In this document: positions 1 to 17,843 of the stretch, in pieces | Layout of the letters: each line of letters starts with the position of its first letter | Position numbering within the stretch: position 1 is the stretch's first letter | From: Escherichia coli | Lineage (GTDB): Bacteria > Pseudomonadota > Gammaproteobacteria > Enterobacterales > Enterobacteriaceae | Length of the DNA stretch: 64,000 nt | NCBI RefSeq assembly: GCF_036507355.1 | Contig: NZ_AP027877.1 | Direction: 5' to 3' (one strand) | Position numbers and translations under genes: made by a program | The notes under the pieces: model-generated | Told to the model about the DNA's origin: nothing | Databases searched by the model: none | The model's input: the letters and a program-made list of their open reading frames with translations, nothing else

Positions 1-741
1 CTGAAAATGCTCGGCGTACCGCGCGCAGAGCTGAAAGCCCGCGTCAAAGAGGCGTTGGCGATGGTGGATGTGGAAGGATTCGAAGACCGCTTTGTCGATC
101 AGATCTCCGGCGGGCAGCAGCAGCGCGTGGCGCTGGCCCGCGCGCTGATCCTCAAGCCGAAAGTGCTGCTGTTTGATGAGCCGTTGAGTAACCTCGACGC
201 CAACCTGCGTCGCAGCATGCGCGACAAGATCCGCGAGTTGCAAAAGCAGTTTGATATCACCTCGCTGTACGTCACCCACGATCAGAGCGAAGCCTTTGCG
301 GTTTCTGATACTGTGCTGGTGATGAACAAGGGACACATCATGCAGATCGGCTCACCGCAGGATCTTTACCGCCAGCCCGCCTCCCGCTTTATGGCGAGCT
401 TTATGGGCGATGCCAACCTGTTCCCGGCAACCTTCAGCGACGGATACGTTGATATCTACGGCTATCATCTGCCGCGCCCGCTGCACTTTGGTACACAGGG
501 TGAAGGGATGGTCGGTGTGCGCCCGGAAGCGATCACGCTCAGCGATCGCGGCGAAGAGAGCCAGCGCTGCGTGATCCGCCATGTCGCCTATATGGGGCCG
601 CAGTATGAAGTGACGGTGGAATGGCACGGGCAGGAGATATTATTGCAGGTCAACGCTACGCGTCTGCAACCGGACGTCGGCGAGCAGTATTATCTTGAAA
701 TCCATCCGTACGGCATGTTTGTTCTGGCGGATGCGGCATAA
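1..741 (+). CDS. afuC: ABC transporter ATP-binding subunit, C-terminal ~246 aa (5' end lies outside window)
   Basis: ABC signature LSGGQQQRVALARAL and Walker B LLFDEPLSNLD in ORF 7..741; symbol assigned from position next to mmuM as in E. coli. Confidence 0.65.
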   Translation: MKMLGVPRAELKARVKEALAMVDVEGFEDRFVDQISGGQQQRVALARALILKPKVLLFDEPLSNLDANLRRSMRDKIRELQKQFDITSLYVTHDQSEAFAVSDTVLVMNKGHIMQIGSPQDLYRQPASRFMASFMGDANLFPATFSDGYVDIYGYHLPRPLHFGTQGEGMVGVRPEAITLSDRGEESQRCVIRHVAYMGPQYEVTVEWHGQEILLQVNATRLQPDVGEQYYLEIHPYGMFVLADAA

Positions 742-759
742 CGTTTTGTGGTTTTGTAG

Positions 760-830
760 GCCGGATAAGGCGCTTGTGCCGCCATCCGGCAATGCCTGAT
801 GCGCTGCGCTTATCAGGCCTACAATGAACG
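760..830. repeat. REP-like palindromic element downstream of afuC
   Basis: gccggataaggcg / gcctgatgcgctgcgcttatcaggcctac motifs typical of enterobacterial REP units. Confidence 0.5.
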
Positions 831-849
831 ATGTAGACCCGATAAACCC

Positions 850-1782
850 TCAGCTTCGCGCTTTTAACGCGGCGATATCCGCAGGCGTGGTGCGACAGCA
901 CCCGCCAATCAACCGTGCGCCAGCGGCCTGCCACTGCGGCAGATAATCCGCCAGCTGCGCGCAATGTTCACCGTGATGATGCCAGGTTTTGCTCACGGCA
1001 TCGTAATGCTCGCCCGAGTTCGGATACACCACCAGCGGCAGCACCGTTAAACCGTGTAAATGCTGCAACGCAGCAGTGGTGTTTTCCAGCGCAATACAGT
1101 TAATGCCTAGCGCCACCACCTGCGGATAACCCGCCAGCAACGCAACCACGTCACGCAGCGGCGTACCGTCGCTCAGGTGTTCGCTGTCGCGCAGGGTAAA
1201 TGAGAACCACGCCCGCGCACGCGGATATGCGGTCAACAGCTCGGCCAACGCCTCAATCTCGGAAAAATTCGGCAGGGTTTCGCAGGCCAGCAGATCGGCC
1301 CCGGCATCCAGCAAGGCTTCCACGCGCGGGCGATGAAACGCCTGAAATGCCTCAACGCTACAATGATAATCGCCACGGTATTCAGAGCCATCCGCCAGAT
1401 ACGCGCCGTAAGGCCCGACGGATCCCGCCACCAGAAGCGTTCCCGCCTGCGGGTTCTCTGCCAGATACGCTTCACGGGCTTTACGCGCCAGCTCCACGCT
1501 TTTGCCAATCAGCGCTTTCGACTGCGCTTCATCCAGACCTCGCGCGGCGAAGCCCGCCGGCGTCGCCTGATAGCTGGCAGTGATCGCGCATTGCGCCCCC
1601 GCCCGGTAGTAATCAAGATGCACTTCGCGGATAAGCTCCGGGTTTTCTACCAGCACTTTGGCTGACCACAGGCTGTCGGCTAAGTTACACCCTCGCGCTT
1701 CCAGCTCCGTCGCCATCGCGCCATCCAGCAGCAGGATATCCTGTTTATCAAGAAGAGCGCGTAACGGATTATTCTGCGACAT
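850..1782 (-). CDS. mmuM: homocysteine S-methyltransferase (310 aa)
   Basis: ORF 850..1926; start placed at internal [28 protein letters not shown], which matches the MmuM N-terminus. Confidence 0.85.
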
Positions 1783-3172
1783 GTTCTGGCTCCTGTTTTG
1801 CGTTTCGGGGTTGAGTAAGGAAATAAGCACCATAGCACAACGCAACAAACGGTAACCCGCACCACAACGCAATTCTCTGCGCTGGATCGAATGCCAGCCC
1901 AACACAGGCCACCAGGCACAGCACAAAACCTAATACTGGCACCAGCGGATACCACGGCGCGCGATAATGTAATTCACTCAATGCCTTACCTTGTTGCAGA
2001 TGACGGCGACGAAAAACAAAATGCGAGGCGCAGATACTCAGCCACACCGCTACCACCGCAAACCCGGAGATTGCCGACAGCGCAACAAATACCGTGTCCG
2101 GGGCCACCACGCTGGAAAACAGCGCCAGCACACCACCGAGCATACTGACCGACAGCGCCGTCAGTGGCACGCCGTTTTTCGTTACTCGCGCAAAACAGGC
2201 CGGTAGCGTACGTTCATTCGACAACGACCACAGCATGCGCCCGGAGGCATATAACCCGGAGTTCGCTGCAGAAAGAATAGCCGTCAGGATCACGAAGTTA
2301 AAAATATCAGCGGCGTACGGGATCCCTACTTTCTCAAATACCAGCACAAACGGGCTTTTCTCCACGCCCGCCTGCTGCATCGGGATCAGCGCTGCCAGCA
2401 CAAACACGGTGCCGATAAAGAAAATAATCAGTCGCGCGATGGTAGTACGAATCGCTACCGGGATAACTTTGCGCGGGTTTTCCGTTTCACCGGCGGCAAT
2501 GCCGATAAGCTCGGTACCCGAAAAAGCAAAGTTCACTGCCACCATAGTCATCAAAATCGGTAAGCCACCGTGCGGGAACCAGCCTTCTGCCGTGATATTA
2601 CTCAGCCCCGGCGCGGGCGAGCCATCCTGCATCGGAATAAAGCCGAAAATCGCCGCCCCACCGAGGATGATAAAGGCGATGATAGTGACCACTTTGACCA
2701 GCGAGAACCAGAACTCCCCTTCGGCAAAAAAGCGCGTGGAGATAACATTCAGACCAAAAATAATCGCGCAGAACACCACGCACCAGACCCATACCGGCAC
2801 CTGTGGAAACCAGTACTGCATACAGAATCCAGCGGCGGTAAAGCTCGAACCCAGCGCCACGGTCCAGGTCAGCCAGTAAAGCCAGGCCACGGTATACCCG
2901 GTAGCCGGACCAAGATAGCGCGCGGCATAAACGTGAAACGCTCCGGTCTCCGGCATCGCGACCGACAGCTCGCCCAGACACTGCATAACCAGCCAGACCA
3001 CCAGCGCACCAATCAGATAGGCCAGCAGCGTTCCCGCCGCTCCAGTGGTGGAAATGATGTACCCGGTATTGAAGAATAATCCTGTGCCAATCACGCCGCC
3101 CAAGGAAAGCATAATCAGGTGACGCGTTTTCATTGTGCGCTTCAGTGGCGCATTTTGTTGTGTTGTTTGCAT
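1769..3172 (-). CDS. mmuP: S-methylmethionine permease, APC family (467 aa)
   Basis: ORF 1769..3196; start placed at [33 protein letters not shown]; polytopic amino-acid permease; overlaps mmuM start. Confidence 0.85.
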
Positions 3173-3347
3173 ATAACCTTCTAAACGCATGGACATCTAA
3201 ACATCCAAAGAAGGTTTGTTATACCGCGTTTGTTAACAGAATGCAAAGTCAACCCTGCACCAGACGCAGATGCCCGCGCCGGGCGCTTAATAGCGGGTGG
3301 GGATTAATAATCAGATACAAAAAGGGCCGCCAGCTCATAACGCCTCC

Positions 3348-4542
<1,195 letters not shown>

Positions 4543-4659
4543 CAAGAGAACGCAACAGCGCACTTGCTTTGCCACAGTTGAATTTTGTGCCGTAACGATG
4601 TGCAAGCATGTAAGCATAAGGAGTCAAGGTATAGCGTGTTACTTAGTTACTCGGATTAA

Positions 4660-5137
4660 CAATCCCAACGTACAGAGCGGCGGATTTACAGAGTCAGCGC
4701 AGTCCCTGCTCCGGCAGTCAGTGGCAGGCGGCGTACTGAAGCAAACCATTATCGATACCGGCATCGGCGATACCATCGGCATGCTGATGTCACACGGCAA
4801 TATTTCTCCCTACATCATGGCGTGGTTGATAACCGTGCTGATCCGTCTGGCAACGGGTCAGGGCGTGGTCTCAGCCATGACGGCGGCGGGGATTATTAGC
4901 GCAGCAATCCTCGACCCGGCAACCGGTCAACTGGTGGGCGTCGACCCGGCGTTGCTGGTGCTGGCAACAGCGGCTGGCTCCAACACGCTGACCCATATCA
5001 ACGATGCTTCGTTCTGGCTGTTCAAAGGCTACTTTGATCTGTCGGTGAAGGATACGCTGAAAACCTGGGGTCTGCTGGAGCTGGTAAACTCCGTGGTTGG
5101 CCTGATAATCGTGTTGATCATCAGCATGATTGCATAA
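4660..5137 (+). pseudogene. 3' fragment of a GntP-family permease gene, 5' part replaced by IS5
   Basis: Only the C-terminal ~150 aa remain (..[71 protein letters not shown]..); the track ORF 4271..5137 reads through the IS5 terminus. Confidence 0.5.
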
Positions 5138-5186
5138 CGTTGATACCGCTCTGGCCCACAGCGCCAGAGCGGTTTTCCATCCTGCC

Positions 5187-5882
5187 TCAACAATCCTCAA
5201 TAATCAGATATACCGCCTTCACCGGACCATGCACCCCAACCACCTTGATAAGCTCAATATCCGCCGTCGAGCTGGGTCCACTGATGATATTAATGCACGA
5301 TGGCATACGCTCACCGGCCTGTGCTTTCTGATGCAGTTTTTCTGCCAGCTGCGCCACGCGCGGCAGGATGGTGCTTTTACGCAGCACGAAAATAGAGGAC
5401 TCCGGCAACAGGCTCAGGGAGCGCCCGCGCTCCGGTGCGGAAAACAGCACCACGCCGCCGGACTCGGTCAGGCCATATTCGGCATACACCACGCCGACTT
5501 TCGCCTGCTCGGCCTGGGTAATATTTTCGCTACCACGCGCCGGATCCCAGACCACGGCGTTGCATTCCTGCTGCAAGCGTTCGGTGATGCCCAGCTCCAC
5601 CAGCCGGCTGTCGCCGCTCAGCACCACCGGCTGCTGACCCAATTCTTCGCACAGGCGCAGTGCCGCGTCTGCGGCCTGGTCCTCGCTGGTCAGTTCGCAG
5701 CGGGCCAGCATCACTTCGCTGGCAAACTGGATAAACGCAGAGCAGCGCTGCTCGGGGCTAAGCTCGGTCAGGCGCTCGTTGGCATAGTTGTTAACCGGTG
5801 CGGCATCCGCTTGCGGTTCGAAGCGCAGCGGGCGACCCAGCGCCTGGGCGATGGTGTTTAAAAACGCGGTACGGTTATCCAT
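5187..5882 (-). CDS. lutC: LutC/YkgG-family lactate utilisation protein C (231 aa)
   Basis: ORF 5187..6029 with internal start MDNRTAFLNTIAQALGRP; 8-nt overlap with upstream lutB end. Confidence 0.75.
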   Translation of the reverse strand: MDNRTAFLNTIAQALGRPLRFEPQADAAPVNNYANERLTELSPEQRCSAFIQFASEVMLARCELTSEDQAADAALRLCEELGQQPVVLSGDSRLVELGITERLQQECNAVVWDPARGSENITQAEQAKVGVVYAEYGLTESGGVVLFSAPERGRSLSLLPESSIFVLRKSTILPRVAQLAEKLHQKAQAGERMPSCINIISGPSSTADIELIKVVGVHGPVKAVYLIIEDC

Positions 5883-7302
5883 TCTTTTTCTCCTGCGCCT
5901 GATGTTTCTTAAACCAGCTGCGGAAGCTCTCGCCGTCAGCATCAGGCAGATCGCGCGCCTCCATCCAGTCACCAATCGCGCCAACCTTGAGCGGGGTTTT
6001 GCCGCCATTGATAAACCAGCTCGCCGCATGCGCGCCCGCCATCATCCCGACTTTCCACAGCCCCGGATGGCTATTGGCATAGGCGAACATCTTGATCGCC
6101 CGTCGCTCGGCTTTCGGCGTAATGCCCTCCTCGGCCATCACCCGGCGATGACGCAGGATCAGTTTTGACAACGGAATACGCACCGGGCAGACGCTGTCAC
6201 AAGCCGTGCACAAAGAACAGGCGTACGGCAGGTCTTTAAAATCTTTATAGCCGCCGAGCAGCGGAGAAATCACCGCGCCGATAGGGCCGGGATAGATAGA
6301 GCCATAGCCGTGCCCGCCGATGTGGCGGTACGCCGGACAGGTGTTCATACAGGCTCCGCAGCGGATGCAGCGCAGCACATCGCGAAACTCTGAGCCCAGC
6401 ACCTGCGAGCGACCGTTATCGACAATCACCAGATGGAACTCTTCCGGTCCGTCAACGTTGTCCGCCTCACGCGGGCCGGTCAGCCAGGTGTTGTAGCCCG
6501 TCAGACGTGCGCCCACGGCGCTGCGCGCCAGCATGGTAATCAGCACATCCACCTCGGCAAAGGTCGGCGCGATACGCTCCATGCCCATCACCGCAATGTG
6601 CGTTTTCGGTAGCGTGGTGCACATGCGCGCGTTGCCTTCGTTGGTCACCAGACACACCGAGCCGGTTTCCGCCACGGCAAAGTTACAGCCAGTAATACCG
6701 ATTTCGGCACTGAGGAAATCCTCGCGGATCTTCTGACGAATGAACAAGGTCATAGCTTCCGGGGTTTCCGGGCCGTCGTACCCCAGACGTTCGTTCAGCA
6801 CGCGGCGGATCTGGTAGCGATCTTTATGAATCGCCGGAACCACGACGTGCGAAGGCGGATCCTGATCCAACTGCAGGATATATTCCCCGAGATCGGTTTC
6901 GATCACCTGGATTCCGGCATCCTGCAACACATGGTTGACGCCGATTTCTTCGGTCACCATCGACTTGGACTTCACCACCTTCTGCGCATTTTTACTCTGC
7001 GCGACCTGCAAAATGTAGCGAGTGGCATCTTCTTTGGTTTTGGCGAAATAGACGTGTCCGCCGTTTTCCGTCACTTTCTCGGAGAGTTGGTACAGGTAAG
7101 CGTCGAGGTTGCTCAGAACGTGATCGCGGATCTGGCTGGCACGATCGCGCCATTCTTCCCAGTGGCCTAACTCATCGACCATTTTTTGCCGATTCGCGCC
7201 GATACGCTCCTGCGCATTAGCTACGGCTTTGCGCATAATCGGATCTTCTATCTGCTGACGAATACGCAGTTTAAATTCTACATCGCTGGTTTTTATCGAC
7301 AT
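5875..7302 (-). CDS. lutB: LutB/YkgF-family iron-sulfur lactate utilisation protein (475 aa)
   Basis: Two ferredoxin-type Cys clusters (CIRCGACMNTCP, CSLCTACDSVCP); length and order match LutB/YkgF. Confidence 0.85.
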   Translation of the reverse strand: MSIKTSDVEFKLRIRQQIEDPIMRKAVANAQERIGANRQKMVDELGHWEEWRDRASQIRDHVLSNLDAYLYQLSEKVTENGGHVYFAKTKEDATRYILQVAQSKNAQKVVKSKSMVTEEIGVNHVLQDAGIQVIETDLGEYILQLDQDPPSHVVVPAIHKDRYQIRRVLNERLGYDGPETPEAMTLFIRQKIREDFLSAEIGITGCNFAVAETGSVCLVTNEGNARMCTTLPKTHIAVMGMERIAPTFAEVDVLITMLARSAVGARLTGYNTWLTGPREADNVDGPEEFHLVIVDNGRSQVLGSEFRDVLRCIRCGACMNTCPAYRHIGGHGYGSIYPGPIGAVISPLLGGYKDFKDLPYACSLCTACDSVCPVRIPLSKLILRHRRVMAEEGITPKAERRAIKMFAYANSHPGLWKVGMMAGAHAASWFINGGKTPLKVGAIGDWMEARDLPDADGESFRSWFKKHQAQEKKNG

Positions 7303-7312
7303 CTCTTTCCCC

Positions 7313-8032
7313 TCAGCGGCTCATCAGCACTTCAGCAATATGCATCACTTTGACCGGCTGGCCTTCCCGTTGCAGTCGACCGCCAATGTTCAGCAGGCAG
7401 CTAACGTCTGCGCCAATCAAAAATTCCGGCTTTGCGTCCATCAGATGTAATACTTTCTCTTTCACCATCTCACCGGATATCTCGGCCATCTTGACCGAGA
7501 ACGTCCCGCCAAAGCCGCAACAGGTATCCTGATCGGCAAACGTCAACAGCTCCAGTCCGCGCACGTTTTTCAGCAGCGTAAGCGGCTCTTCCTTCACTCC
7601 CAGTTTGCGGGTCAGGCTACAGGAAGGATGATACACAGCGCGGCCCTGCAGGCTGGCACCAACGTCCACCACACCCAGTTTGTTGACGATAAAGGAGGTG
7701 AGATCCTGCATACGCGCGGAAACTTTCTCAGCACGCAGCGCCCATTCCGGTTCATCGGCCAGATACGTCGGGTAGCTTTTAACCGCGTAGGTGCAGGAGC
7801 CCGCCGGGGAGATAATCGGATCGTCGTTGTCTTCCAGCGCGGCGATCAGGTTTTTCATCCCGGGAATCGCCTCTTTGATGTAACCGCTGTTGATGGCTGG
7901 CTGACCGCAACACCCTTGCTTCTCGGGGAAATTAACGCGACAACCCAGTTTTTCCAGCAGCAATACGGAGTCTCGTGCCATCCGTGATTTCAGTGCGTCA
8001 CCAATACAGGTGACAAAGAAATTTACATTCAC
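7313..8032 (-). CDS. lutA: LutA/YkgE-family Cys-rich Fe-S oxidoreductase subunit (239 aa)
   Basis: CCG-type Cys-rich domain (FVTCIGD.., CCGQPA.., CCGFGG); first gene of the lutABC-like trio. Confidence 0.85.
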   Translation of the reverse strand: MNVNFFVTCIGDALKSRMARDSVLLLEKLGCRVNFPEKQGCCGQPAINSGYIKEAIPGMKNLIAALEDNDDPIISPAGSCTYAVKSYPTYLADEPEWALRAEKVSARMQDLTSFIVNKLGVVDVGASLQGRAVYHPSCSLTRKLGVKEEPLTLLKNVRGLELLTFADQDTCCGFGGTFSVKMAEISGEMVKEKVLHLMDAKPEFLIGADVSCLLNIGGRLQREGQPVKVMHIAEVLMSR

Positions 8033-8069
8033 AATAACTACTCCATTGCTTCATTTCTGTTTATTGCGC

Positions 8070-8087
8070 TTGATATCGCGATATCAA
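8070..8087. promoter_or_regulatory. Perfect 18-bp palindrome TTGATATCGCGATATCAA between the dld-like stop and lutA start
   Basis: Read directly from sequence; self-complementary; no T-run follows on either strand, so more likely an operator than a terminator. Confidence 0.3.
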
Positions 8088-8106
8088 ACAAATGTTCATT
8101 CGTATT

Positions 8107-9804
8107 TCATGCCCAGTTTTTATGTTTGCTGGTTTTACCAATACCTGGGTTCATAGTGTTGGTCGGATCATTTTCCTGATAAAAACGTGCCAAATTTTCC
8201 GGCGCTTTATACAGATGGCCGACATTGTGTTCCGCCGGATATTGCGCTCCGCGTTGGCGCAGTAATTCCAGCATCTGTTCTTTTAACGCGTGGGCATCTA
8301 CGCCTTTTTTAACGATATAATCCTGATGGAATACATGGCACATAAAATGGCCGTAATAGAGTTTATGCACCAACTGACTGTCAATTTCCGTCGGTAAATG
8401 CTCATACCATTCGGTATCATTGCGGCGTAATGGAATATCCAGCGCGAGAATATCCTCAACCTCGTCAGAATGAACAGCCTGATAACGAATGGCAGCACCC
8501 GCGGCGGCAAAACGATGCAGAAACGCCTTACTGCCCTCTTCCGCGGTACAGGTAAAGAACGCGCCCTCGGCCGATTTAAAATAGTCCGTTAACCATGCCT
8601 GGGCTTCGGCCACACCCTCACCGGACATTTTCAACATCAGATGGTGTTCATAGTTATCGCGCCAGGTCTTCATCCGCGCCGGGAGATGGCTCGGGAACAG
8701 ATGGCTAAAAGCCTGCATCGCGCGGTCGGTAAAGTGCGGGCGAAAGATCTTCACCTTCTCAAGTATGGCCTCGGTACGCCCCTTCAGGTTGAAGAAGAAC
8801 GGCATTTTGTCCGTGCCAAGTTTGTCGATCATCAGGAAGGTATCTTTGCTGTATTTCTCTGCAATATCATAGATATCGCGGTGCATATACTCCCCAGCAA
8901 CCGGCAGGTTTGTAAAATTCGCCAGGATGTGGCGGCGAATCTCAGTCAGGACATCAGTCTGATTGGTACCGATATAAAAGACCTGCTGGTTCTTCTCGGC
9001 TTCAAAGGTATCCAGACGTACGGCAAACACCGCTAACTTGCCCGCACAGCCAGAGGATTCAAACAGGCGATCCGGGTCAGCGTTGTAACGTGCTGGCGTG
9101 TCGGCATTGATGTCCCGCACGCGGCTAACATAGTCGTGATCGTGCGCGTGACGCCCGTCATGGTTGACGAGCACGGCTTCAATCGCATTGTTATCCAGCC
9201 GGGCAAGGATTTGCTCTGGCGTCTGACCTAGCTCAATGCCGAGGTGATTGACCAGCTGCAAGCGTCCCTGTTCATCAATACGGGCAAACAGCGACATCTC
9301 GGTATAAGCCGGGCCACGCTGGACCAGAGAACCGCCGGAGTTATTACAGATACCGCCGATAACCGACGCGCCGATGCACGAAGAGCCAATCACCGAATGC
9401 GGCTCACGGCCAAACGGCTTCAGCGCCTTTTCCAGCGAATACAGCGTGGTGCCCGGATAAGCCAGCACCTGCTTACCCTCATCTAGCACATGCAGACTGT
9501 CCAGCCGCAGCGTGCTGATAATGACGATCTCGCGGTCGTAATCATTACCATTGGGCGTCGAACCCTCAGTCAGGCCAGTGTTCGACGCCTGCATCAGGAT
9601 TATTTTATCGGCCTCAACGCAGGCGCTAAGGACTTTCCAGAGTTCAAGCAAAGAGCCGGGGATAACCACCGCCAGAGCATCACCCTGACCCGAGCGAAAA
9701 CCCTTACGGTAACGCGCAGTTTTTGACGGTTCGGTGAGGATATGAGCAGGGCCAACCAATTGGGTAAGAGTTGTCAAAAAGGTCTTATTATCAGTATGTT
9801 TCAT
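8107..9804 (-). CDS. dld: FAD-dependent D-lactate dehydrogenase, Dld paralogue (~565 aa)
   Basis: Collinear full-length similarity to E. coli Dld (..ARYRKGFRSGQGDALAVV.PGSLLELW.., ..RHILANF.NLPVAGEYMHRDIYDIAEKY..); start chosen at MKHTDNKTFL inside ORF 8107..9852; many substitutions versus K-12 Dld as recalled. Confidence 0.8.
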   Translation of the reverse strand: MKHTDNKTFLTTLTQLVGPAHILTEPSKTARYRKGFRSGQGDALAVVIPGSLLELWKVLSACVEADKIILMQASNTGLTEGSTPNGNDYDREIVIISTLRLDSLHVLDEGKQVLAYPGTTLYSLEKALKPFGREPHSVIGSSCIGASVIGGICNNSGGSLVQRGPAYTEMSLFARIDEQGRLQLVNHLGIELGQTPEQILARLDNNAIEAVLVNHDGRHAHDHDYVSRVRDINADTPARYNADPDRLFESSGCAGKLAVFAVRLDTFEAEKNQQVFYIGTNQTDVLTEIRRHILANFTNLPVAGEYMHRDIYDIAEKYSKDTFLMIDKLGTDKMPFFFNLKGRTEAILEKVKIFRPHFTDRAMQAFSHLFPSHLPARMKTWRDNYEHHLMLKMSGEGVAEAQAWLTDYFKSAEGAFFTCTAEEGSKAFLHRFAAAGAAIRYQAVHSDEVEDILALDIPLRRNDTEWYEHLPTEIDSQLVHKLYYGHFMCHVFHQDYIVKKGVDAHALKEQMLELLRQRGAQYPAEHNVGHLYKAPENLARFYQENDPTNTMNPGIGKTSKHKNWA

Positions 9805-10239
9805 GGAGGGCGGCTCTCCGCTCCTTATATCAGGGCCAGTGAAAATGGCCATAAGTTCATTTGTACGACAAAACAGAATATTCCCTCAATCAATATCCAC
9901 ATGCAATACCCCATTTTATTTCTTTCGGCACCGCTCACATTTTTTAATGAAATTACCACTACCACATAATTCATACTCCGTTCTTTTACTGGATGCCAAA
10001 ACGCTTATTTCATTTATTGCAAAGACCATTTCATACCTATTAATGATTAACTCTAATGGGTATTATTATATTTAGTGGTTATTCATATTTAATAAAAAAA
10101 TAACATTATTTATACAATTATTAACCTTTGTAACTTTATTTCACTGAAGCGATTCAGTTTGCATTTTTTATTTTATTATTAAGGTAGCCTCCTTCCCCCT
10201 AAATATAGTTAAGTCTAAAAAAGTAAATCGAGAATTGTA

Positions 10240-11793
10240 ATGCACGAATATTTAATGTTTGCCCTGGCACTCTCTCCTTTGCTGCTGATGGTATTTTTAA
10301 TACTGAAATTAAAAATGCCCATCCATTATTCCGTACTGATCTCTTTGGTATTCACCGCTGCACTATCGGCAATATTCTGGGAAATGCCCACACAGAATCT
10401 GAAAGCCGCGATAGGCTATGGTGCACTGAAGGGACTATGGCCGATCGTAATTGTTATCCTCGGCGCTATCTTCAGTTATAACGTCATGCAGGCGACCAAA
10501 GCGCTGGATATTCTGCGCGATATTCTCGCCAGCATTAGCGAAGATAAGCGTATTCAGGTGCTGCTGATTTCATGGTGTTTTGGTGGATTTCTTGAAGCCG
10601 CTGCGGGCTATGGCACGGCGGTCGCTATTCCGATCGGTATTCTCATTGCGCTGGGATTCAACCCGTTGAAGGCGGCGATTGCTTCCCTCGTAGCAAATAC
10701 CGTTCCGACCGCATTTGGCGCGGTTGGGATCCCAGTTTCTATTCTGGCAGAGCAGGTTAATCTGCCGGTTTATACCTTAGGCGGAACCATTATTTTGCAG
10801 CTCGCGCTGTTTAATATCCTGCTGCCGTTTGTGATTGTCTGCATTATTGGCGGTGGCCTGAAAGCCATTCGCGGCGTATTTCTGATCACGTTGATTTGCG
10901 GCATTTCCACGCTGGTTCCGCAATATTTTGTCGCCATCCATCTTGGCGCGGAATTACCCGCCTTTGCCGGTAGCCTGGTCAGCCTGTTTGCCGTGGCGAT
11001 GGTCAGTCGCCTGCGCAAAGGGAAAACCGATCCCGAGTGGCGCATTGAGGTCAGCCATACCCGCGAAACCACGCCGCGCTCGGCAAAAGTGTTGTTCCGG
11101 GTTGGCTCTATTTATCTGTTTATTTTTGTGTTTATCCTGCTGTGTTCGCCGCTGTTCCCGACAATAAAAAGCGTGGCATCCCAACTGGCTTCGGTGCTGC
11201 ATTTCACGTTGGCTGACGGCAAAACGATGGCGCTGAAAGTTGAATGGGCGACCACACCGGGGATGCTGATCATCTTTGCGACCATTATCGGCGGTTTTAT
11301 TCAGGGAGCGTCCGCACGTGGGATGCTGGAAGTATTTATCAAAACGATTTTCCAGCTTAAAAACTCTATCGTCGCAATTATGGCGATCGTCGCGCTGGCC
11401 ACGGTGATGGATCTCAGCGGGATTATCTCCACGCTGGCCCAGTCGATTGTCGATCTGACCGGCAGCTCGTACGTCTTCCTCGCCCCGGTGATTGGCGCGC
11501 TGGGCACGTTCGTGACCGGCAGCGATACCAACTCGAACATTCTGTTCGGCAAGCTGCAAACCATTGCCGCCAGCAAGTTACATATCGATCCTAACTGGCT
11601 GGCGGCGGCCAATACCTCTGGCGCTACGGGGGGGAAAATGATTTCGCCGCAAAGCATCGCCATCGCAGTTTCTGCCACCAAAATGGACGGTCAGGCCAAC
11701 CAGATTATGTCTGGCACCATGAAATACTGCTGCGCCTACATTGTGATCCTCGGCCTGAAAGTCGGTCTGTTTTATTACTGGTTTATGGCGTAA
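10240..11793 (+). CDS. L-lactate permease, LctP family (517 aa)
   Basis: Polytopic membrane protein with the LctP-family N-terminus; divergent from the dld-like operon across a 435-bp AT-rich region. Confidence 0.8.
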   Translation: MHEYLMFALALSPLLLMVFLILKLKMPIHYSVLISLVFTAALSAIFWEMPTQNLKAAIGYGALKGLWPIVIVILGAIFSYNVMQATKALDILRDILASISEDKRIQVLLISWCFGGFLEAAAGYGTAVAIPIGILIALGFNPLKAAIASLVANTVPTAFGAVGIPVSILAEQVNLPVYTLGGTIILQLALFNILLPFVIVCIIGGGLKAIRGVFLITLICGISTLVPQYFVAIHLGAELPAFAGSLVSLFAVAMVSRLRKGKTDPEWRIEVSHTRETTPRSAKVLFRVGSIYLFIFVFILLCSPLFPTIKSVASQLASVLHFTLADGKTMALKVEWATTPGMLIIFATIIGGFIQGASARGMLEVFIKTIFQLKNSIVAIMAIVALATVMDLSGIISTLAQSIVDLTGSSYVFLAPVIGALGTFVTGSDTNSNILFGKLQTIAASKLHIDPNWLAAANTSGATGGKMISPQSIAIAVSATKMDGQANQIMSGTMKYCCAYIVILGLKVGLFYYWFMA

Positions 11794-11995
11794 ACCATTG
11801 TCAACCCCGTCAAATTCGCGGCAATCGAATTTGACGACATAGTGACCAAAAAGGTTTACACCGCCCCGGGAACGGAACGAGGCAACAGACTTTACGATTT
11901 GTCGGCGCTGACTAAAATAGCGCCGATGTTTCAAATCGAGGATTGTTGTTATGTTGTTCTGGAAAAAGATGGTGAAGAAGTTCGACGCCTTTTCC

Positions 11996-12350
11996 GGTGA
12001 TGCTGCCAACTTACTGATTTAGTGTATGATGGTGTTTTTAAGGTGCTTGCGTGGCTTCCATTTCCATCAGATGTCCTTCCTGCTCCGCTACTGAAGGCGT
12101 GGTGCGTAACGGCAAAAGCACTGCCGGACATCAGCGCTATCTCTGCTCTCATTGCCGTAAAACATGGCAACTGCAGTTCACTTACACCGCCTCTCAGCCC
12201 GGTACGCACCAGAAAATCATTGATATGGCCATGAATGGCGTCGGATGTCGCGCCAGTGCACGCATTATGGGCGTTGGCCTCAACACGATTTTCCGCCATT
12301 TAAAAAACTCAGGCCGCAGTCGGTAACCTCGCGCATACAGCCGGGCAGTG
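11996..12350 (+). mobile_element. IS1 left portion (~355 bp), truncated by an IS2 insertion
   Basis: IS1 terminus GGTGATGCTGCCAACTTACTGATTTAGTGTATGATGGTG at 11996; intact insA; sequence switches to the IS2 terminus at 12351. Confidence 0.85.
12051..12326 (+). CDS. insA: IS1 InsA (91 aa, variant allele)
   Basis: [68 protein letters not shown].. Confidence 0.9.
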
Positions 12351-12979
12351 TAGACTGGCCCCCTGAATCTCCAGACAACCAATATCACTTAAATAAGTGA
12401 TAGTCTTAATACTAGTTTTTAGACTAGTCATTGGAGAACAGATGATTGATGTCTTAGGGCCGGAGAAACGCAGACGGCGTACTACACAGGAAAAGATCGC
12501 TATCGTTCAGCAGAGCTTTGAACCGGGAATGACGGTCTCCCTTGTTGCCCGGCAACATGGTGTGGCAGCCAGCCAGCTATTTCTCTGGCGTAAGCAATAC
12601 CAGGAGGGAAGTCTTACTGCTGTGGCTGCCGGAGAACAGGTCGTTCCTGCCTCTGAACTTGCTGCCGCCATGAAGCAGATTAAAGAACTCCAGCGCCTGC
12701 TCGGCAAAAAAACGATGGAAAATGAACTCCTTAAAGAAGCCGTTGAATATGGGCGAGCAAAAAAGTGGATAGCGCACGCGCCCTTATTGCCCGGGGATGG
12801 GGAGTAAGCTTCGTCAGCCGTTGTCTCCGGGTGTCGCGTGCGCAGTTGCACGTCATTCTCAGACGAACCGATGACTGGAAGGAAGGCCGCCGCAGCCGTC
12901 ACACGGATGATACGGATGTGCTTCGCCGTATACACCATGTTATCGGAGAGCTGCCCACATATGGTTATCGTCGGGTATC
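12351..12979 (+). mobile_element. IS2 left ~630 bp, 3' part deleted
   Basis: IS2 terminus TAGACTGGCCCCCTGAATCTCCAGACAACCAATATCACTTAAATAAGTGATAGTC at 12351; insC intact; insD reading frame leaves IS2 after ..PTYGYRRV near 12979. Confidence 0.85.
12442..12807 (+). CDS. insC: IS2 OrfA / InsC (121 aa)
   Basis: [56 protein letters not shown]..; A7 slippery run at 12707-12713. Confidence 0.9.
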
Positions 12980-13235
12980 CGGTCCCACCTTGCAGGTTTT
13001 ACGTACCCGCCAGTCGCCCGATGGCTGCGAGGATGGCAGTTACTACTACCTCGTGGATATGCAGAGAAAAACCGTCCAGCCACTGATGAATGCGCTGTGT
13101 ATTGCCGATAACATCAAACTGGAATACCAGGAGGTGACGGACCCGTATACCAAAGAAAAATACTTTGAGTACGCCCATGACGGCAAACTGATGGGGCAGC
13201 TACTGATACCCTCGAACCCTGACAATCAGGAATAA
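12765..13235 (+). pseudogene. Chimeric ORF: IS2 InsD N-terminus fused in frame to the 3' part of a YafY/YfjS-family lipoprotein gene
   Basis: N-terminal half is InsD (..[21 protein letters not shown]); C-terminal half (..[39 protein letters not shown]..) parallels the intact lipoprotein at 55404..55856. Confidence 0.7.
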
Positions 13236-13258
13236 AAACAACGATAAAGGAAACAGAA

Positions 13259-13726
13259 ATGACAATACGTTCACTAAGTCGGTTTGTGCTGGTGGGTGTA
13301 CTGCTCGCGAGCTTTAATGCCTCTGCTATCCCGGGGTTCTGGCAGCAGGGTTACGGTCAGGGCAATACGGAATACAGTGTGACCGAAGCCAGCGGGAAGA
13401 CGTTTACCATCAACTGCACAGGGAACCCGGACCAGAATGGTTTTTATCAGCATTCAGTCTTTCTTACCCTTGCCGATGACAAGATGGTCAGTTCGCACGA
13501 TGACGACACTACTATCACCGTAGTGATGGATCACCAGCAGTACATTATTCCGTCCAGCCTGGGCTGGCGTAACGGCGATAACGCCTGGTTTGACTTCATC
13601 AGCAATATCTCTGAGGCCGGGCAGTTCGACGTCTACGTCAATGACCACAAAGCAGGGACCTTCACTGCGGACCGGAAGAACGCTGAGAAAGTTCTGTCCA
13701 CTCTCGGAGACTGCAGCAACGACTGA
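13259..13726 (+). CDS. Secreted protein of unknown function, prophage-remnant module (YkfB-position)
   Basis: N-terminal signal peptide [23 protein letters not shown]; position between lipoprotein fragment and DUF905 gene. Confidence 0.55.
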
Positions 13727-13802
13727 TAGTAGTATCTTCCCCAGCAAATCCACCCCGACAGCTAGCAGGCTGCCGGGGTTTTCTTTTATCAGGAGCCCGA
13801 AA

Positions 13803-14042
13803 ATGACCCAATCCGTGTTGCTGCCACCGGGGCCTTTCACCCGGAGACAAGCGCAAGCGGTCACTACCACGTACAGCAATATCACACTCGAAGACGACCA
13901 GGGCAGTCACTTCCGTCTGGTGGTTCGTGATACTGAAGGCCGGATGGTCTGGCGGGCATGGAACTTTGAGCCGGATGCCGGTGAAGGTCTTAACCGCTAT
14001 ATCCGCACCTCAGGCATCCGTACAGACACGGCCACCCGCTGA
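13803..14042 (+). CDS. Small DUF905-like protein (79 aa, YkfF-position)
   Basis: ATG at 13803 inside ORF 13590..14042; size and position as in CP4-6/CP4-57-type modules. Confidence 0.5.
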
Positions 14043-14139
14043 TCGCGAAGCATTTACCCGCATTCACCTCCCCGAACACACTTTATATCCCCATACGCCA
14101 GCCATCGCCGCTGGCGTTTTTATTGACGGAGACATACCC

Positions 14140-14598
14140 ATGACAACACAGACGCAGCACGACCTCGCACCCGCTAACCAACCCGAATTTGAACTGACCG
14201 TCACGCCGGTCCCCGATGAACAGCGTATCGATTTCTGGCCACAGTACTTTGGCGCTATCCCGCAGTGGCTACTCCTGGAGCCGCATATCTTCGCCTGGAT
14301 GGACCGCTTCTGTGAGGGCTACAGCGGTGGTATCTGGTCGTTCTACACCCTCAGCAATGGCGGCGCATTTATGTCCCCCGAGCCTGACAACGATGAGACA
14401 TGGCGTCTGTTTAACTGCCTGAACGGTAACGATGCCCAAATGAGTGCAGAAGCAGCAGGTATTGCTGTCTGCCTGATTGCGTATAGCCACCATGCCTGCC
14501 GTACAGAATGTGACGCGATGACCGCACACTATTACCGCCTGCGGGAGTATGCCATGCAACATCCAGAGGCTCACGCCATTCTGCGTATTATCGACTGA
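14140..14598 (+). CDS. Antirestriction protein, ArdB/KlcA-like (YafX/YfjX family)
   Basis: ..[51 protein letters not shown].. ; paralogue of 58068..58538. Confidence 0.75.
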   Translation: MTTQTQHDLAPANQPEFELTVTPVPDEQRIDFWPQYFGAIPQWLLLEPHIFAWMDRFCEGYSGGIWSFYTLSNGGAFMSPEPDNDETWRLFNCLNGNDAQMSAEAAGIAVCLIAYSHHACRTECDAMTAHYYRLREYAMQHPEAHAILRIID

Positions 14599-14613
14599 CC
14601 GAAGGAGCAACAG

Positions 14614-15090
14614 ATGAAACAGCTTTCCTTTTTACCCGGCGAGATGACGCCACAGGACCGGCGTCTCATTCAGCGGGCGCTCAGGGCTCTGGACCGCCAC
14701 CTGCATGAGCCCGGCGTAGCCTTCACCTCTACCCACGCCGTACGTGAATGGCTGCGACTGCATATGGCCGCGCTTGAGCGGGAAGAGTTCCGGGTGTTGT
14801 ATCTGGACAACCAGAATCAGTTGATTGCCCATGAAACGCTCTTCACCGGCACGATTAACCGCACCGAGGTGCATCCCCGGGAGGTGGTCAAACGTGCTCT
14901 GCACTTCAACGCGGCGGCGGTGATACTCGCGCATAACCATCCTTCCGGCGAGACGACACCTAGCCAGGCCGACAAAACCCTCACGCAGCGACTGGTTCAG
15001 GTGCTTCAGCTGGTGGATATCCGTGTCCCTGACCATCTGATTGTCGGTGGCAGGCAAATCTATTCGTTCGCAGAACACGGTCTGCTTTGA
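14614..15090 (+). CDS. RadC-like JAB-domain protein (YkfG/YfjY/YeeS family)
   Basis: JAMM-like motif ..AAAVILAHNHPSGETTPSQADKTLTQRL.. Confidence 0.8.
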   Translation: MKQLSFLPGEMTPQDRRLIQRALRALDRHLHEPGVAFTSTHAVREWLRLHMAALEREEFRVLYLDNQNQLIAHETLFTGTINRTEVHPREVVKRALHFNAAAVILAHNHPSGETTPSQADKTLTQRLVQVLQLVDIRVPDHLIVGGRQIYSFAEHGLL

Positions 15091-15098
15091 GGTATTAC

Positions 15099-15320
15099 AT
15101 GAAAATTATCAGTAAACGCAGGGCAATGACGATATACCGCCAGCATCCTGAGTCCCGAATCTTTCGCTACTGCACCGGCAAATACCAGTGGCACGGTAGC
15201 GTCTGTCATTACACCGGCAGGGACGTTCCGGATATCGCCGGAGTCCTCGCGGTATACGCCGAACGCCGCCAAGACCGCAATGGGCCCTATACCTGCCTGA
15301 TGAGCATCACCCTGAACTGA
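15099..15320 (+). CDS. DUF987 protein (YkfH/YpjJ/YeeT family)
   Basis: MKIISKRRAMTIYRQHPESRIFRYCTGKYQWHGSVCHYTG.. ; paralogue at 59050..59271. Confidence 0.7.
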   Translation: MKIISKRRAMTIYRQHPESRIFRYCTGKYQWHGSVCHYTGRDVPDIAGVLAVYAERRQDRNGPYTCLMSITLN

Positions 15321-15338
15321 CAATAGTGGAGAACTGTA

Positions 15339-16018
<680 letters not shown>

Positions 16019-16399
16019 ACATTGCGTACAACCTTCCCGATTTACATTTCTGAACTTCCTCCCTTGTTTACCTATTGCGTAATGCGCCTGCTACTACCCG
16101 GCAGGCGCGTTATCTTTTTACGGACAAACAATCATGCAACCAGAAGTTGAAGTATTAACCGATCATAATGAGCTAATTTGTTCGAGCTTTATTGAACACA
16201 TTGCCAACACATTAAATTTAGGAGTGGTGTACAACTAAACCTGCAGCCAAGGATGTATAGTGAGCGAAGCCCTATCAGGCCTTTTTGGTCAGTAGATAAG
16301 ATTGATCTTCGTTGATAGAATTTACTTACACCAGCTGTTACATTAAGATAATTTTTTGGTGGGAGAATGATAAGATCTTACGTAACAATTTGATTTTAA

Positions 16400-16475
16400 T
16401 GGTGCCGATAATAGGAGTCGAACCTACGACCTTCGCATTACGAATGCGCTGCTCTACCAACTGAGCTATATCGGC
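16400..16475 (-). tRNA. thrW: tRNA-Thr (anticodon CGU)
   Basis: Reverse complement reads GCCGATATAGCTCAGTTGGTAGAGCAGCGCATTCGTAATGCGAAGGTCGTAGGTTCGACTCCTATTATCGGCACCA. Confidence 0.9.
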
Positions 16476-16589
16476 CCTGAAAGGACATGTTCACGAACGT
16501 GAATCACGGTGGACAAGGTTAAAACTAACCGGGCGATGCGTCAATGGCCTTGTGAATCAAATGGCTACTTTTGCATCACCCGATTTTAT

Positions 16590-17843
16590 TTACGCACGAA
16601 TGGTGTAATCACCAATGCCGATCCACTTGTAAGTGGTCAGTGCTTCCAGCCCCATTGGGCCACGCGCGTGGAGTTTTTGTGTGCTTACCGCCACTTCCGC
16701 ACCCAGTCCAAACTGGCCGCCGTCGGTAAAACGCGTAGAGGCGTTAACGTAAACAGCGGACGAATCCACTTCGTTAACAAAACGCTGGGCGTTGCGCATA
16801 TCGCGGGTCAGGATCGCATCGGAGTGTTGTGTGCCGTGTTCACGAATATGGGCGATGGCATCGTCAAGATCGCTGACGATTTTGACGTTCAAATCTAATG
16901 ACAGAAACTCATCGTCATACTCTTCGGCTTTAACCGCCACCACCTTCGCGGGGCCTGCCTGCAACTGTGTCAGCGCAGCTGCATCTGCGTGTAATGTCAC
17001 GCCGCTTTCCGCCATTTGTTTGCTTAATACGGGCAGGAAGCTATCGGCGATGTTTTTATTCACCAGCAACGTTTCTACCGTATTACATGTGCTCGGACGC
17101 TGAGTTTTCGCATTGACGATTACTTTCAGGGCTTCAGCAATCTCTGCACTTTCATCAACATAAATATGGCATACGCCTATACCACCTGTGATCACCGGGA
17201 TCGTCGACTGCTCGCGGCACAGTTTATGCAAACCAGCCCCGCCGCGCGGGATCAGCATGTCGATGTATTTATCCATACGCAGCATTTCACTGACCAGCGC
17301 ACGGTCAGGATTATCAATCGCCTGCACGGCACCCGCCGGTAAGCCACAGGATTTCAGGGCGTCCTGAATCACCGCCACCGTTGCCGCGTTAGTGCGACAG
17401 GTTTCTTTGCCACCACGCAGGATCACCGCATTACCGGTTTTCAGGCACAGCGAAGCGACATCAACCGTCACGTTCGGGCGCGCTTCATAAATCACGCCAG
17501 TAACCCCCAGCGGTACGCGACGACGCTCAAGACGCAGGCCGCTGTCCAGTACGCCGCCATCGATTACCTGCCCCACCGGATCGGCGAGGTTGCACACCTG
17601 GCGCACATCATCGGCAATGCCTTTCAGCCGTGCGGGCGTCAGTGCCAGACGGTCAAGCATCGCTTCGCTAAGGCCATTGGCTCGCGCGTCAGCAACATCC
17701 TGGGCGTTAGCGTTGAGGATGATTTCGCTTTGTGCTTCCAGTTCATCGGCGATTTTTTCCAGCACGCGATTTTTTTCGCGGCTGGAGAGTTGCGCTAATT
17801 TATACGAGGCTTGCTTCGCGGCAATGCCCATTTGTTCCAGCAT
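16590..17843 (-). CDS. proA: gamma-glutamyl phosphate reductase (417 aa)
   Basis: Full-length match to ProA. Confidence 0.95.

Follow-up and report, generated by a model that had tools for sequence, protein, structure and literature searches.

Positions 5187-11793 of the 64,000-nucleotide (nt) stretch of Escherichia coli contig NZ_AP027877.1 (assembly GCF_036507355.1) that we analysed, called here the window, hold five genes, lctP, dld2, lutA, lutB and lutC, that belong to families of lactate permeases and lactate dehydrogenases. We put at roughly 85% the probability that this block is an accessory respiratory lactate-utilisation module that originated in the Citrobacter freundii complex, and that rearrangement mediated by insertion sequences (IS) brought it into the variable region linked to the tRNA gene thrW.

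All five genes are intact, as judged from the listing of open reading frames (ORFs) and from curated family models. Four of them lie on the minus strand, and lctP diverges from them on the plus strand:

5187-5882, minus strand: lutC, paralogue of ykgG, 231 amino acids (aa), LUD-domain subunit
5875-7302, minus strand: lutB, paralogue of ykgF, 475 aa, iron-sulfur subunit
7313-8032, minus strand: lutA, paralogue of ykgE, 239 aa, CCG-domain subunit
8107-9804, minus strand: dld2, second gene for a quinone-dependent D-lactate dehydrogenase with flavin adenine dinucleotide (FAD), 565 aa
10240-11793, plus strand: lctP, LctP-family lactate permease, 517 aa

The identities of these genes follow from curated models that score above their cut-offs, and from a full-length match of Dld2 to a known structure. 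LutB reaches 759.8 bits against TIGR00273 (cut-off 444.8) and has two CxxCxxCxxxC motifs, starting at residues 312 and 362, while LutA has Cys-Cys pairs at residues 41/42 and 171/172. Pfam matches, which are precomputed and belong to the genes at the same positions in near-identical (at least 99.9% nt) draft genomes, are CCG (PF02754) for lutA, LUD, Fer4 and LutB_C for lutB, LUD (PF02589) for lutC, FAD_binding_4 (PF01565) and Lact-deh-memb (PF09330) for dld2, and Lactate_perm (PF02652) for lctP. With the adjacent A-B-C order, the expected domains and two 4Fe-4S motifs in the B subunit, the three lut genes form a system of the LutABC/LldEFG/YkgEFG type. A 280-aa ORF that extends lutC to 6029 is an over-extension; the same sequence is annotated by the Prokaryotic Genome Annotation Pipeline as a LutC/YkgG family protein.

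Dld2 scores 1043 bits against the equivalog model NF008387 (cut-off 391), over profile positions 3-567 of 570, and aligns end to end with the E. coli Dld structure PDB 1F0X (residues 2-564 against 5-567). It has both the FAD-binding PCMH domain and the Dld-specific membrane-binding domain, which places it among the Dld equivalogs. An alternative in-frame ATG upstream, at 9852, gives the 581-aa form used by some annotations. The permease scores 402.5 bits against TIGR00795 (cut-off 341.15) over residues 4-509 of its 517, and is thus a full-length member of the LctP family (Transporter Classification 2.A.14). It is neither an LldP equivalog (257.8 bits vs. a cut-off of 918) nor a GlcA equivalog (256.9 vs. 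1121), and belongs to a separate permease branch that accompanies lutABC. Compared with their Citrobacter orthologues, all five genes are under purifying selection, with omega between 0.008 and 0.085, the highest value being that of lutC. The original prediction, made by reading the window alone, had described an LctP-family permease on the plus strand opposite Dld-like and lutABC genes on the minus strand, forming a self-contained module; genes, positions and strands are as described, and the permease, the D-lactate dehydrogenase and the L-lactate oxidising complex are complete.

The block has its closest relatives in Citrobacter. In a search with the permease against one genome per species, the best matches (93-98% aa identity) are on Citrobacter chromosomes. 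Window positions 4724-11996 align without interruption to the C. portucalensis chromosome CP145154, with 96.9% identity over 7274 base pairs (bp). On that chromosome the genes run uxuR-uxuB-uxuA and a full-length gntP, then lutC-lutB-lutA-dld diverging from lctP, and then genes for a pdxK-type kinase, a tyrosine permease and tyrosine phenol-lyase. Dld2 is 99.1% identical in aa sequence to the Dld of CP145154 and 99.1-99.5% identical to Citrobacter Dld overall.

The identity to the paralogues of E. coli itself is much lower. The lutCBA part matches the canonical ykgEFG genes of 5226 complete E. coli genomes, at only ~83% nt identity; at the protein level LutA is 95.0% identical to YkgE, LutB 95.2% identical to YkgF and LutC 86.6% identical to YkgG (LutC is 99.1% identical to a copy on a Klebsiella plasmid). 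Dld2 is 86.4% aa and 77.7% nt identical to canonical Dld. Given 83% nt identity to ykgEFG and 77.7% to canonical dld, as opposed to 96.9% to a Citrobacter chromosome, the block is by its sequence a xenologue and not an intragenomic duplication. The prediction that Dld2 is a xenologue and lutABC a ykgEFG-like second copy is therefore borne out; the block is not found at this position in K-12, and its dld gene is not identical to the canonical one. For annotation purposes, the block should be treated as a Citrobacter-derived xenologous second copy, neither a misassembly nor a duplication.

Not every member of the C. freundii complex could have been the donor. Species representatives of the complex have the locus as gntP followed by lutCBA diverging from lctP, with dld removed by a clean deletion of ~1.63 kilobases (kb) that leaves the last 23 codons of dld in a decayed state (L018 at 9440-9640; also L019-L023, L027, L038 and L042). 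We considered the species representative C. portucalensis A60 as donor and ruled it out, as it has no dld. The presence of dld varies among strains of the complex, and other strains keep it, such as CP145154 (L103), where it is intact.

Within E. coli, the whole block is present in 105-107 of 5426 complete genomes (~2%), in two allele groups of ~99.7% and ~97% identity. That ~98% of complete E. coli genomes are without it, as is K-12 at this position, agrees with the prediction that it was acquired. Of the 60 best dld matches, 59 are chromosomal records, and every one of these keeps the canonical dld as well; in E. coli TC24 the ykgEFG and lutABC copies stand side by side. The chromosomal sites are not all the same. 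In TC24 and G47-1 the module adjoins ykgE or yagU and a junction of IS1 with a truncated afuB, and the DAX4 copy occupies another IS-rich island, one that also has a type I restriction system. The arrangement of the window itself recurs in many draft genomes, which match its positions 1-12977 at 99.9-99.99% identity.

The block also travels on plasmids. In PLSDB, 80% or more of the block is present at ~97% identity on 142 plasmids; Klebsiella accounts for 124 of the 206 matching records. As examples, an IncFIB/FII Klebsiella plasmid (L016) has the ars cluster on one side of the block and the pco cluster on the other, and in Salmonella Senftenberg 775W the IncHI2 plasmid (L017) has ars genes next to it. 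On both, the module stands beside a higBA toxin-antitoxin pair, phage-like genes and an ars operon; of the two, the Klebsiella plasmid alone has pco on the opposite side. Since the replicon types are unrelated, this common neighbourhood suggests that both share a larger mobile region.

The boundaries of the module in the window are formed by the following features:

3348-4542, minus strand: IS5-family element (ISKpn26-like), left boundary, with an intact 326-aa transposase gene at 3494-4474 (NF033581, 363 bits)
4544-4723, no strand: orphan segment of 180 bp between the IS5 element and the gntP fragment
4724-5137, plus strand: fragment of gntP (gluconate permease), its 3′ third, profile positions 310-446 of 447 in NF007459
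11995-12350, no strand: IS1 fragment of 356 bp, right boundary in this lineage, 92-100% identical to IS1 copies in the retrieved loci
12351-12978, plus strand: left 628 bp of IS2, inserted in IS1, 96% identical to IS3-family (IS2) copies

Two of these features mark where the captured DNA ends. The gntP fragment marks the left breakpoint, as homology to Citrobacter begins exactly at 4724, inside a gene that is full length (447 aa) in Citrobacter. On the right, Citrobacter homology stops at 11996, where IS1 begins; the plasmid and DAX4 forms continue for ~245 bp more on this side. The 180-bp orphan accompanies every E. coli chromosomal copy of the module, and we found no source for it among the retrieved loci, nor any match in those of Citrobacter and of plasmids. 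The bracketing by an IS5-type element on the left and by an IS1 stub with an inserted IS2 stub on the right had been claimed correctly; the anatomy given in the original prediction stands except for two details overlooked between IS5 and lutC, namely the orphan and the 3′ third of gntP.

How the module arrived can be read in part from these boundaries. A composite transposon was considered and rejected: the flanking IS are of different families (IS5 type on the left, a truncated IS1 on the right) and there is no target-site duplication. The terminal repeats of the IS5-type element can be read directly, and the 4-mers that flank it are CTCC and CAAG. In TC24, G47-1, DAX4 and the draft genomes the module is likewise joined to this element, and in the window the element abuts mmuP at the exact boundary of the K-12 IS5, but inverted and with 95.6% identity (K-12 locus L111, 5287-6481). 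In TC24 and G47-1 the same parts occur in circularly permuted order, as IS5, the module, IS1 and afuB′-fbpC-mmuM-mmuP. Because the IS5 element has no target duplication and the order of the parts is permuted, recombination and deletion mediated by IS would fit better than the transposition of a defined composite element.

The module is set in variable DNA. A truncated fbpC, mmuM and mmuP fill window positions 1-3347. Many E. coli plasmids of 64-147 kb also carry the fbpC-mmuM-mmuP block (1-3363), with 99.9% identity; the cargo beside the module is thus mobile as well. On the other side, the terminal repeat of IS2 is read at 12351, and an ORF at 12765-13235, which starts inside the stub, aligns to residues 1-72 of the model for IS2 TnpB. 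The stub has its own truncation, against CP4-6-type prophage remnants. Beside it (12976-12983), the window is without ~5.6 kb present in close draft genomes (L007, L011 and L014, at 1240-6870), a deletion adjoining the truncated IS2; the missing genes are of GTPase, DUF932, WYL, BrxR-like and SNF2-like types. To the right of the stub come CP4-6-type genes, then thrW, the gene for tRNA-Thr(CGT), at 16400-16475 and 4.4 kb from the module, and then proA. Positions 12976-17000 correspond, at 99.4% identity, to the K-12 stretch that begins near ykfB, spans thrW and ends in proA. With variable DNA and CP4-6-type genes adjoining this tRNA gene, the module does lie inside a thrW-associated island of the CP4-6 type, as predicted. 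The prediction had also placed other cargo in this slot of K-12, and that is correct. Between the mmuP-proximal IS5 and ykfB, K-12 has a truncated ykfC, IS30, perR, ykfA and yafZ, and its only match to the block is ykgEFG, which is 83% identical and lies elsewhere on the chromosome.

The locus has been captured more than once. The E. coli plasmid pLR-62-2_1 carries a variant that is 83% identical to the block, and that variant is 97.5% identical to the chromosome of C. gillenii over 8 kb; by this comparison the locus was captured independently at least twice, each time from another Citrobacter lineage. The E. coli alleles are themselves uneven. Between the window and DAX4, identity is 99.8-100% across the gntP fragment and lutCBA and 93-99% from the 5′ half of dld through lctP (9100-11996), which indicates that the alleles are mosaic and that unlike Citrobacter-type alleles recombined, either during capture or later. 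The Klebsiella plasmids were examined as the direct parent of the window copy and set aside: the plasmid form starts at 4756, 32 bp further into gntP, and has neither the 180-bp orphan nor IS5. The window and Klebsiella plasmid copies are related through a common Citrobacter-derived ancestor, with later mosaicism.

We turn to the expression of the module. The gaps dld-lutA, lutA-lutB and lutB-lutC are small (74, 10 and -8 nt), so that these four genes are probably one minus-strand operon. The two transcription units would diverge from a shared control region in which we note two palindromes:

9805-10239, no strand: divergent control region between dld2 and lctP, 435 bp, AT-rich, with a guanine-cytosine content of 0.35
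9860-9872, no strand: palindrome TTTGTACGACAAA, of GntR/FadR-type pattern, near dld2
10144-10157, no strand: palindrome CTGAAGCGATTCAG, a match to the Cra consensus, near lctP

The first, TTTGTACGACAAA, matches T.GT...AC.A, a pattern of GntR/FadR type, and the second, CTGAAGCGATTCAG, matches the Cra consensus. Both are within conserved blocks of a spacer that otherwise differs by ~20% among Citrobacter variants. The TTTGTACGACAAA palindrome is also retained upstream of the canonical ykgE; the CTGAAGCGATTCAG palindrome is intact in every place that has lctP, the cryptic Escherichia included, and decayed in E. coli, where lctP is lost. This conservation suggests that the two are candidate sites for regulators encoded in the host core genome, of GntR/FadR type near dld2 and of Cra type near lctP. 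The LldR/PdhR-type box TGGTNNNACCA was also tried; it has no match in the control region, and its count across the window is not above chance. An Rfam scan of 3000-17000 gives tRNA only. Among the neighbouring genes of the inspected copies there is no regulator gene carried with the module. In six genera of Enterobacterales no regulator linked to lctP-lutABC is evident, with neighbouring ORFs judged by size and position only.

The pairing of lctP with lutABC is usual in Enterobacterales, and E. coli has lost it. Among the retrieved loci, more than 40 genomes, from Enterobacterales and Sutterella, have lctP adjoining lutABC. In Sutterella and most Enterobacterales an lctP-type permease gene is directly upstream of lutABC in one operon, and in Citrobacter the arrangement is divergent. 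The cryptic Escherichia clades have lctP between ykgE and rclR. When the ykgE-rclR spacer of E. coli sensu stricto is aligned to theirs, the alignment runs to the start codon of lctP, contains a 68-bp internal remnant and resumes at rclR, leaving a deletion scar of ~1.7 kb (L002 at 13427-13961 compared with L106 at 8508-10740). Since lctP is kept in the cryptic Escherichia and a remnant persists in E. coli, the ykgEFG operon of K-12 is, on this alignment, a lut operon that lost its own permease by deletion. The module, in turn, would supply E. coli with a permease-coupled set. A remnant of dld upstream of E. coli ykgE was considered as well, and the alignment is too weak to claim it.

In the mechanism that we propose, LctP would import lactate, as its family membership implies. 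Dld2, a peripheral-membrane FAD enzyme by its family, would oxidise D-lactate to pyruvate and pass the electrons to quinone. The iron-sulfur complex LutABC, given 95% identity to YkgE and YkgF, would convert L-lactate to pyruvate. In E. coli MP1 respiring nitrate, YkgEFG serves as a respiratory L-lactate dehydrogenase, and the ykgEFG mutant has an L-lactate- and nitrate-dependent phenotype (PMC9701030). The module duplicates the dld and ykgEFG of its host, and it brings in a permease coupled to LutABC, which E. coli sensu stricto has lost by deletion. How these enzymes work is understood no differently after our findings.

Several points weigh against an active lactate module. With lldPRD, dld and ykgEFG present in E. 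coli, it looks redundant. Mutants in ykgEFG or dld show no gut fitness defect, and these genes are dispensable in colitis models (PMC9701030). We found no functional study of the module in the literature, in any host. The regulator assignments are candidates, made by matching consensus patterns. A scan of 4500-12100 for promoter and terminator consensus gives counts at or below the shuffled expectation, and the sites that it lists are not evidence. Finally, any canonical loci of the source genome would lie outside the window, and co-occurrence is read from other genomes.

The first two of these points favour the alternative that fares best, one that we nonetheless think unlikely: that the block is a passive passenger of IS5, IS1 and plasmid traffic, hitch-hiking for instance with metal-resistance cargo, with little or no expression and no lactate benefit. 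The lack of a regulator gene of its own, the adjoining ars and pco clusters on plasmids, and the variable, IS-rich positions in E. coli are all as such a passenger would have them. A pure passenger, however, is expected to accumulate pseudogenes, as has happened to the neighbouring gntP, and yet the five genes are whole in each copy inspected from E. coli, plasmids and drafts, the only deletions being those of dld in some Citrobacter chromosomes. The omega values, the repeated capture from different Citrobacter lineages and the conserved operator-like boxes also argue against a passenger.

The module could also serve something other than lactate oxidation. The enzymes and the permease might act mainly on other 2-hydroxy acids (glycolate, 2-hydroxybutyrate, glycerate) and so widen the substrate range. 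The permease is neither an LldP nor a GlcA equivalog (258 and 257 bits vs. 918 and 1121), the LctP family includes glycolate carriers, and the native neighbours in Citrobacter are hexuronate and gluconate genes. We find this quite improbable: from end to end, Dld2 shares 86% identity with the characterised D-lactate dehydrogenase of E. coli, LutA and LutB are 95% identical to subunits that behave as an L-lactate dehydrogenase (PMC9701030), and the lctP-lutABC linkage conserved across Enterobacterales is what one expects of a cognate lactate carrier. As for an origin of the block inside E. coli, in which ykgEFG and dld were duplicated and then diverged, we give it next to no credence: E. coli does have paralogues of four of the five genes, but the identities contrasted above and the full synteny with Citrobacter, including the gntP fragment, already refute it by sequence, lctP has no counterpart in E. 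coli sensu stricto, and dld and ykgEFG are unlinked in K-12, where dld lies between pbpG and bglX.

Taking the block to be an accessory lactate module of Citrobacter origin, we can ask what it is good for. Tentatively, and with more doubt than belief, we suggest that the cassette is a mobile fitness determinant, which would restore to E. coli, and add to Klebsiella, the permease-coupled respiration of both lactate enantiomers, and would be selected in lactate-rich niches with an electron acceptor, such as the inflamed gut, the urinary tract or food. If true, this would explain both the repeated capture and the spread on conjugative plasmids of multi-resistance or metal resistance. Lactate rises in the inflamed gut and supports blooms of Enterobacteriaceae (PMC9701030), so a transferable cassette that joins the uptake and the oxidation of both enantiomers could be a niche-adaptation trait. 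The cassette passes among Citrobacter, Klebsiella, Salmonella and E. coli, and the plasmids that carry it often bear resistance to arsenic and copper as well.

How does the module compare with known lactate systems? Like ykgEFG of E. coli, lutABC of Bacillus subtilis and lldEFG of Shewanella, it has three subunits in the same order and with the same domains. Unlike E. coli ykgEFG, the copy in the module is xenologous (83% nt identity), would form one operon with dld, and is paired with a cognate lctP. It also differs from Bacillus lutABC, which a gene for a LutR-type regulator adjoins; the module has no such gene. Dld2 is like E. coli Dld (1F0X) in aligning over its full length with 86.4% aa identity and in having the FAD_binding_4 and Lact-deh-memb domains, and unlike it in that its gene is upstream of lutABC, is derived from Citrobacter and is variably present in the C. 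freundii complex.

The lldP-dld-II-lldEFG cluster of Shewanella oneidensis and the lldPDE cluster of Pseudomonas bring together a permease and D- and L-lactate dehydrogenases in one locus. The module likewise joins a permease with both dehydrogenases, which by analogy would make both enantiomers usable. In contrast to the Shewanella cluster, its D-lactate enzyme is of the E. coli Dld type and not of the Fe-S Dld-II type. And in contrast to both clusters, its permease gene is divergent and not co-transcribed, and it has no linked regulator of LldR type.

Finally, the module is of a known kind. Hundreds of records already have it annotated, among them ~105 complete E. coli genomes and 142 plasmids, and two papers touch on a cluster like it. 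The E. coli plasmid pFec10 carries LctP, a Dld more than 85% identical to that of K-12 and a second ykgEFG (YkgE 94%), and its authors call the driving force for acquiring the lactate cluster unknown (PMC7984374). As described, that cluster is like ours in its gene set of LctP, Dld and second YkgEFG, and in its levels of identity to K-12. A lutABC(P)/hsdMSR region is reported near tRNA-Phe in E. coli of sequence types (ST) 127, 117 and 95 (PMC9769692); going by its description, the ST127 region resembles the contexts in DAX4 and G47-1, with a type I restriction system nearby. The sites differ, being a P1-derived IncY plasmid for pFec10 and a tRNA-Phe island for ST127 as opposed to the thrW region in the window. 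To these reports we add the Citrobacter chromosomal source with its two breakpoints, the second capture, the variable dld of the C. freundii complex, and the scar of the lctP deletion in E. coli.

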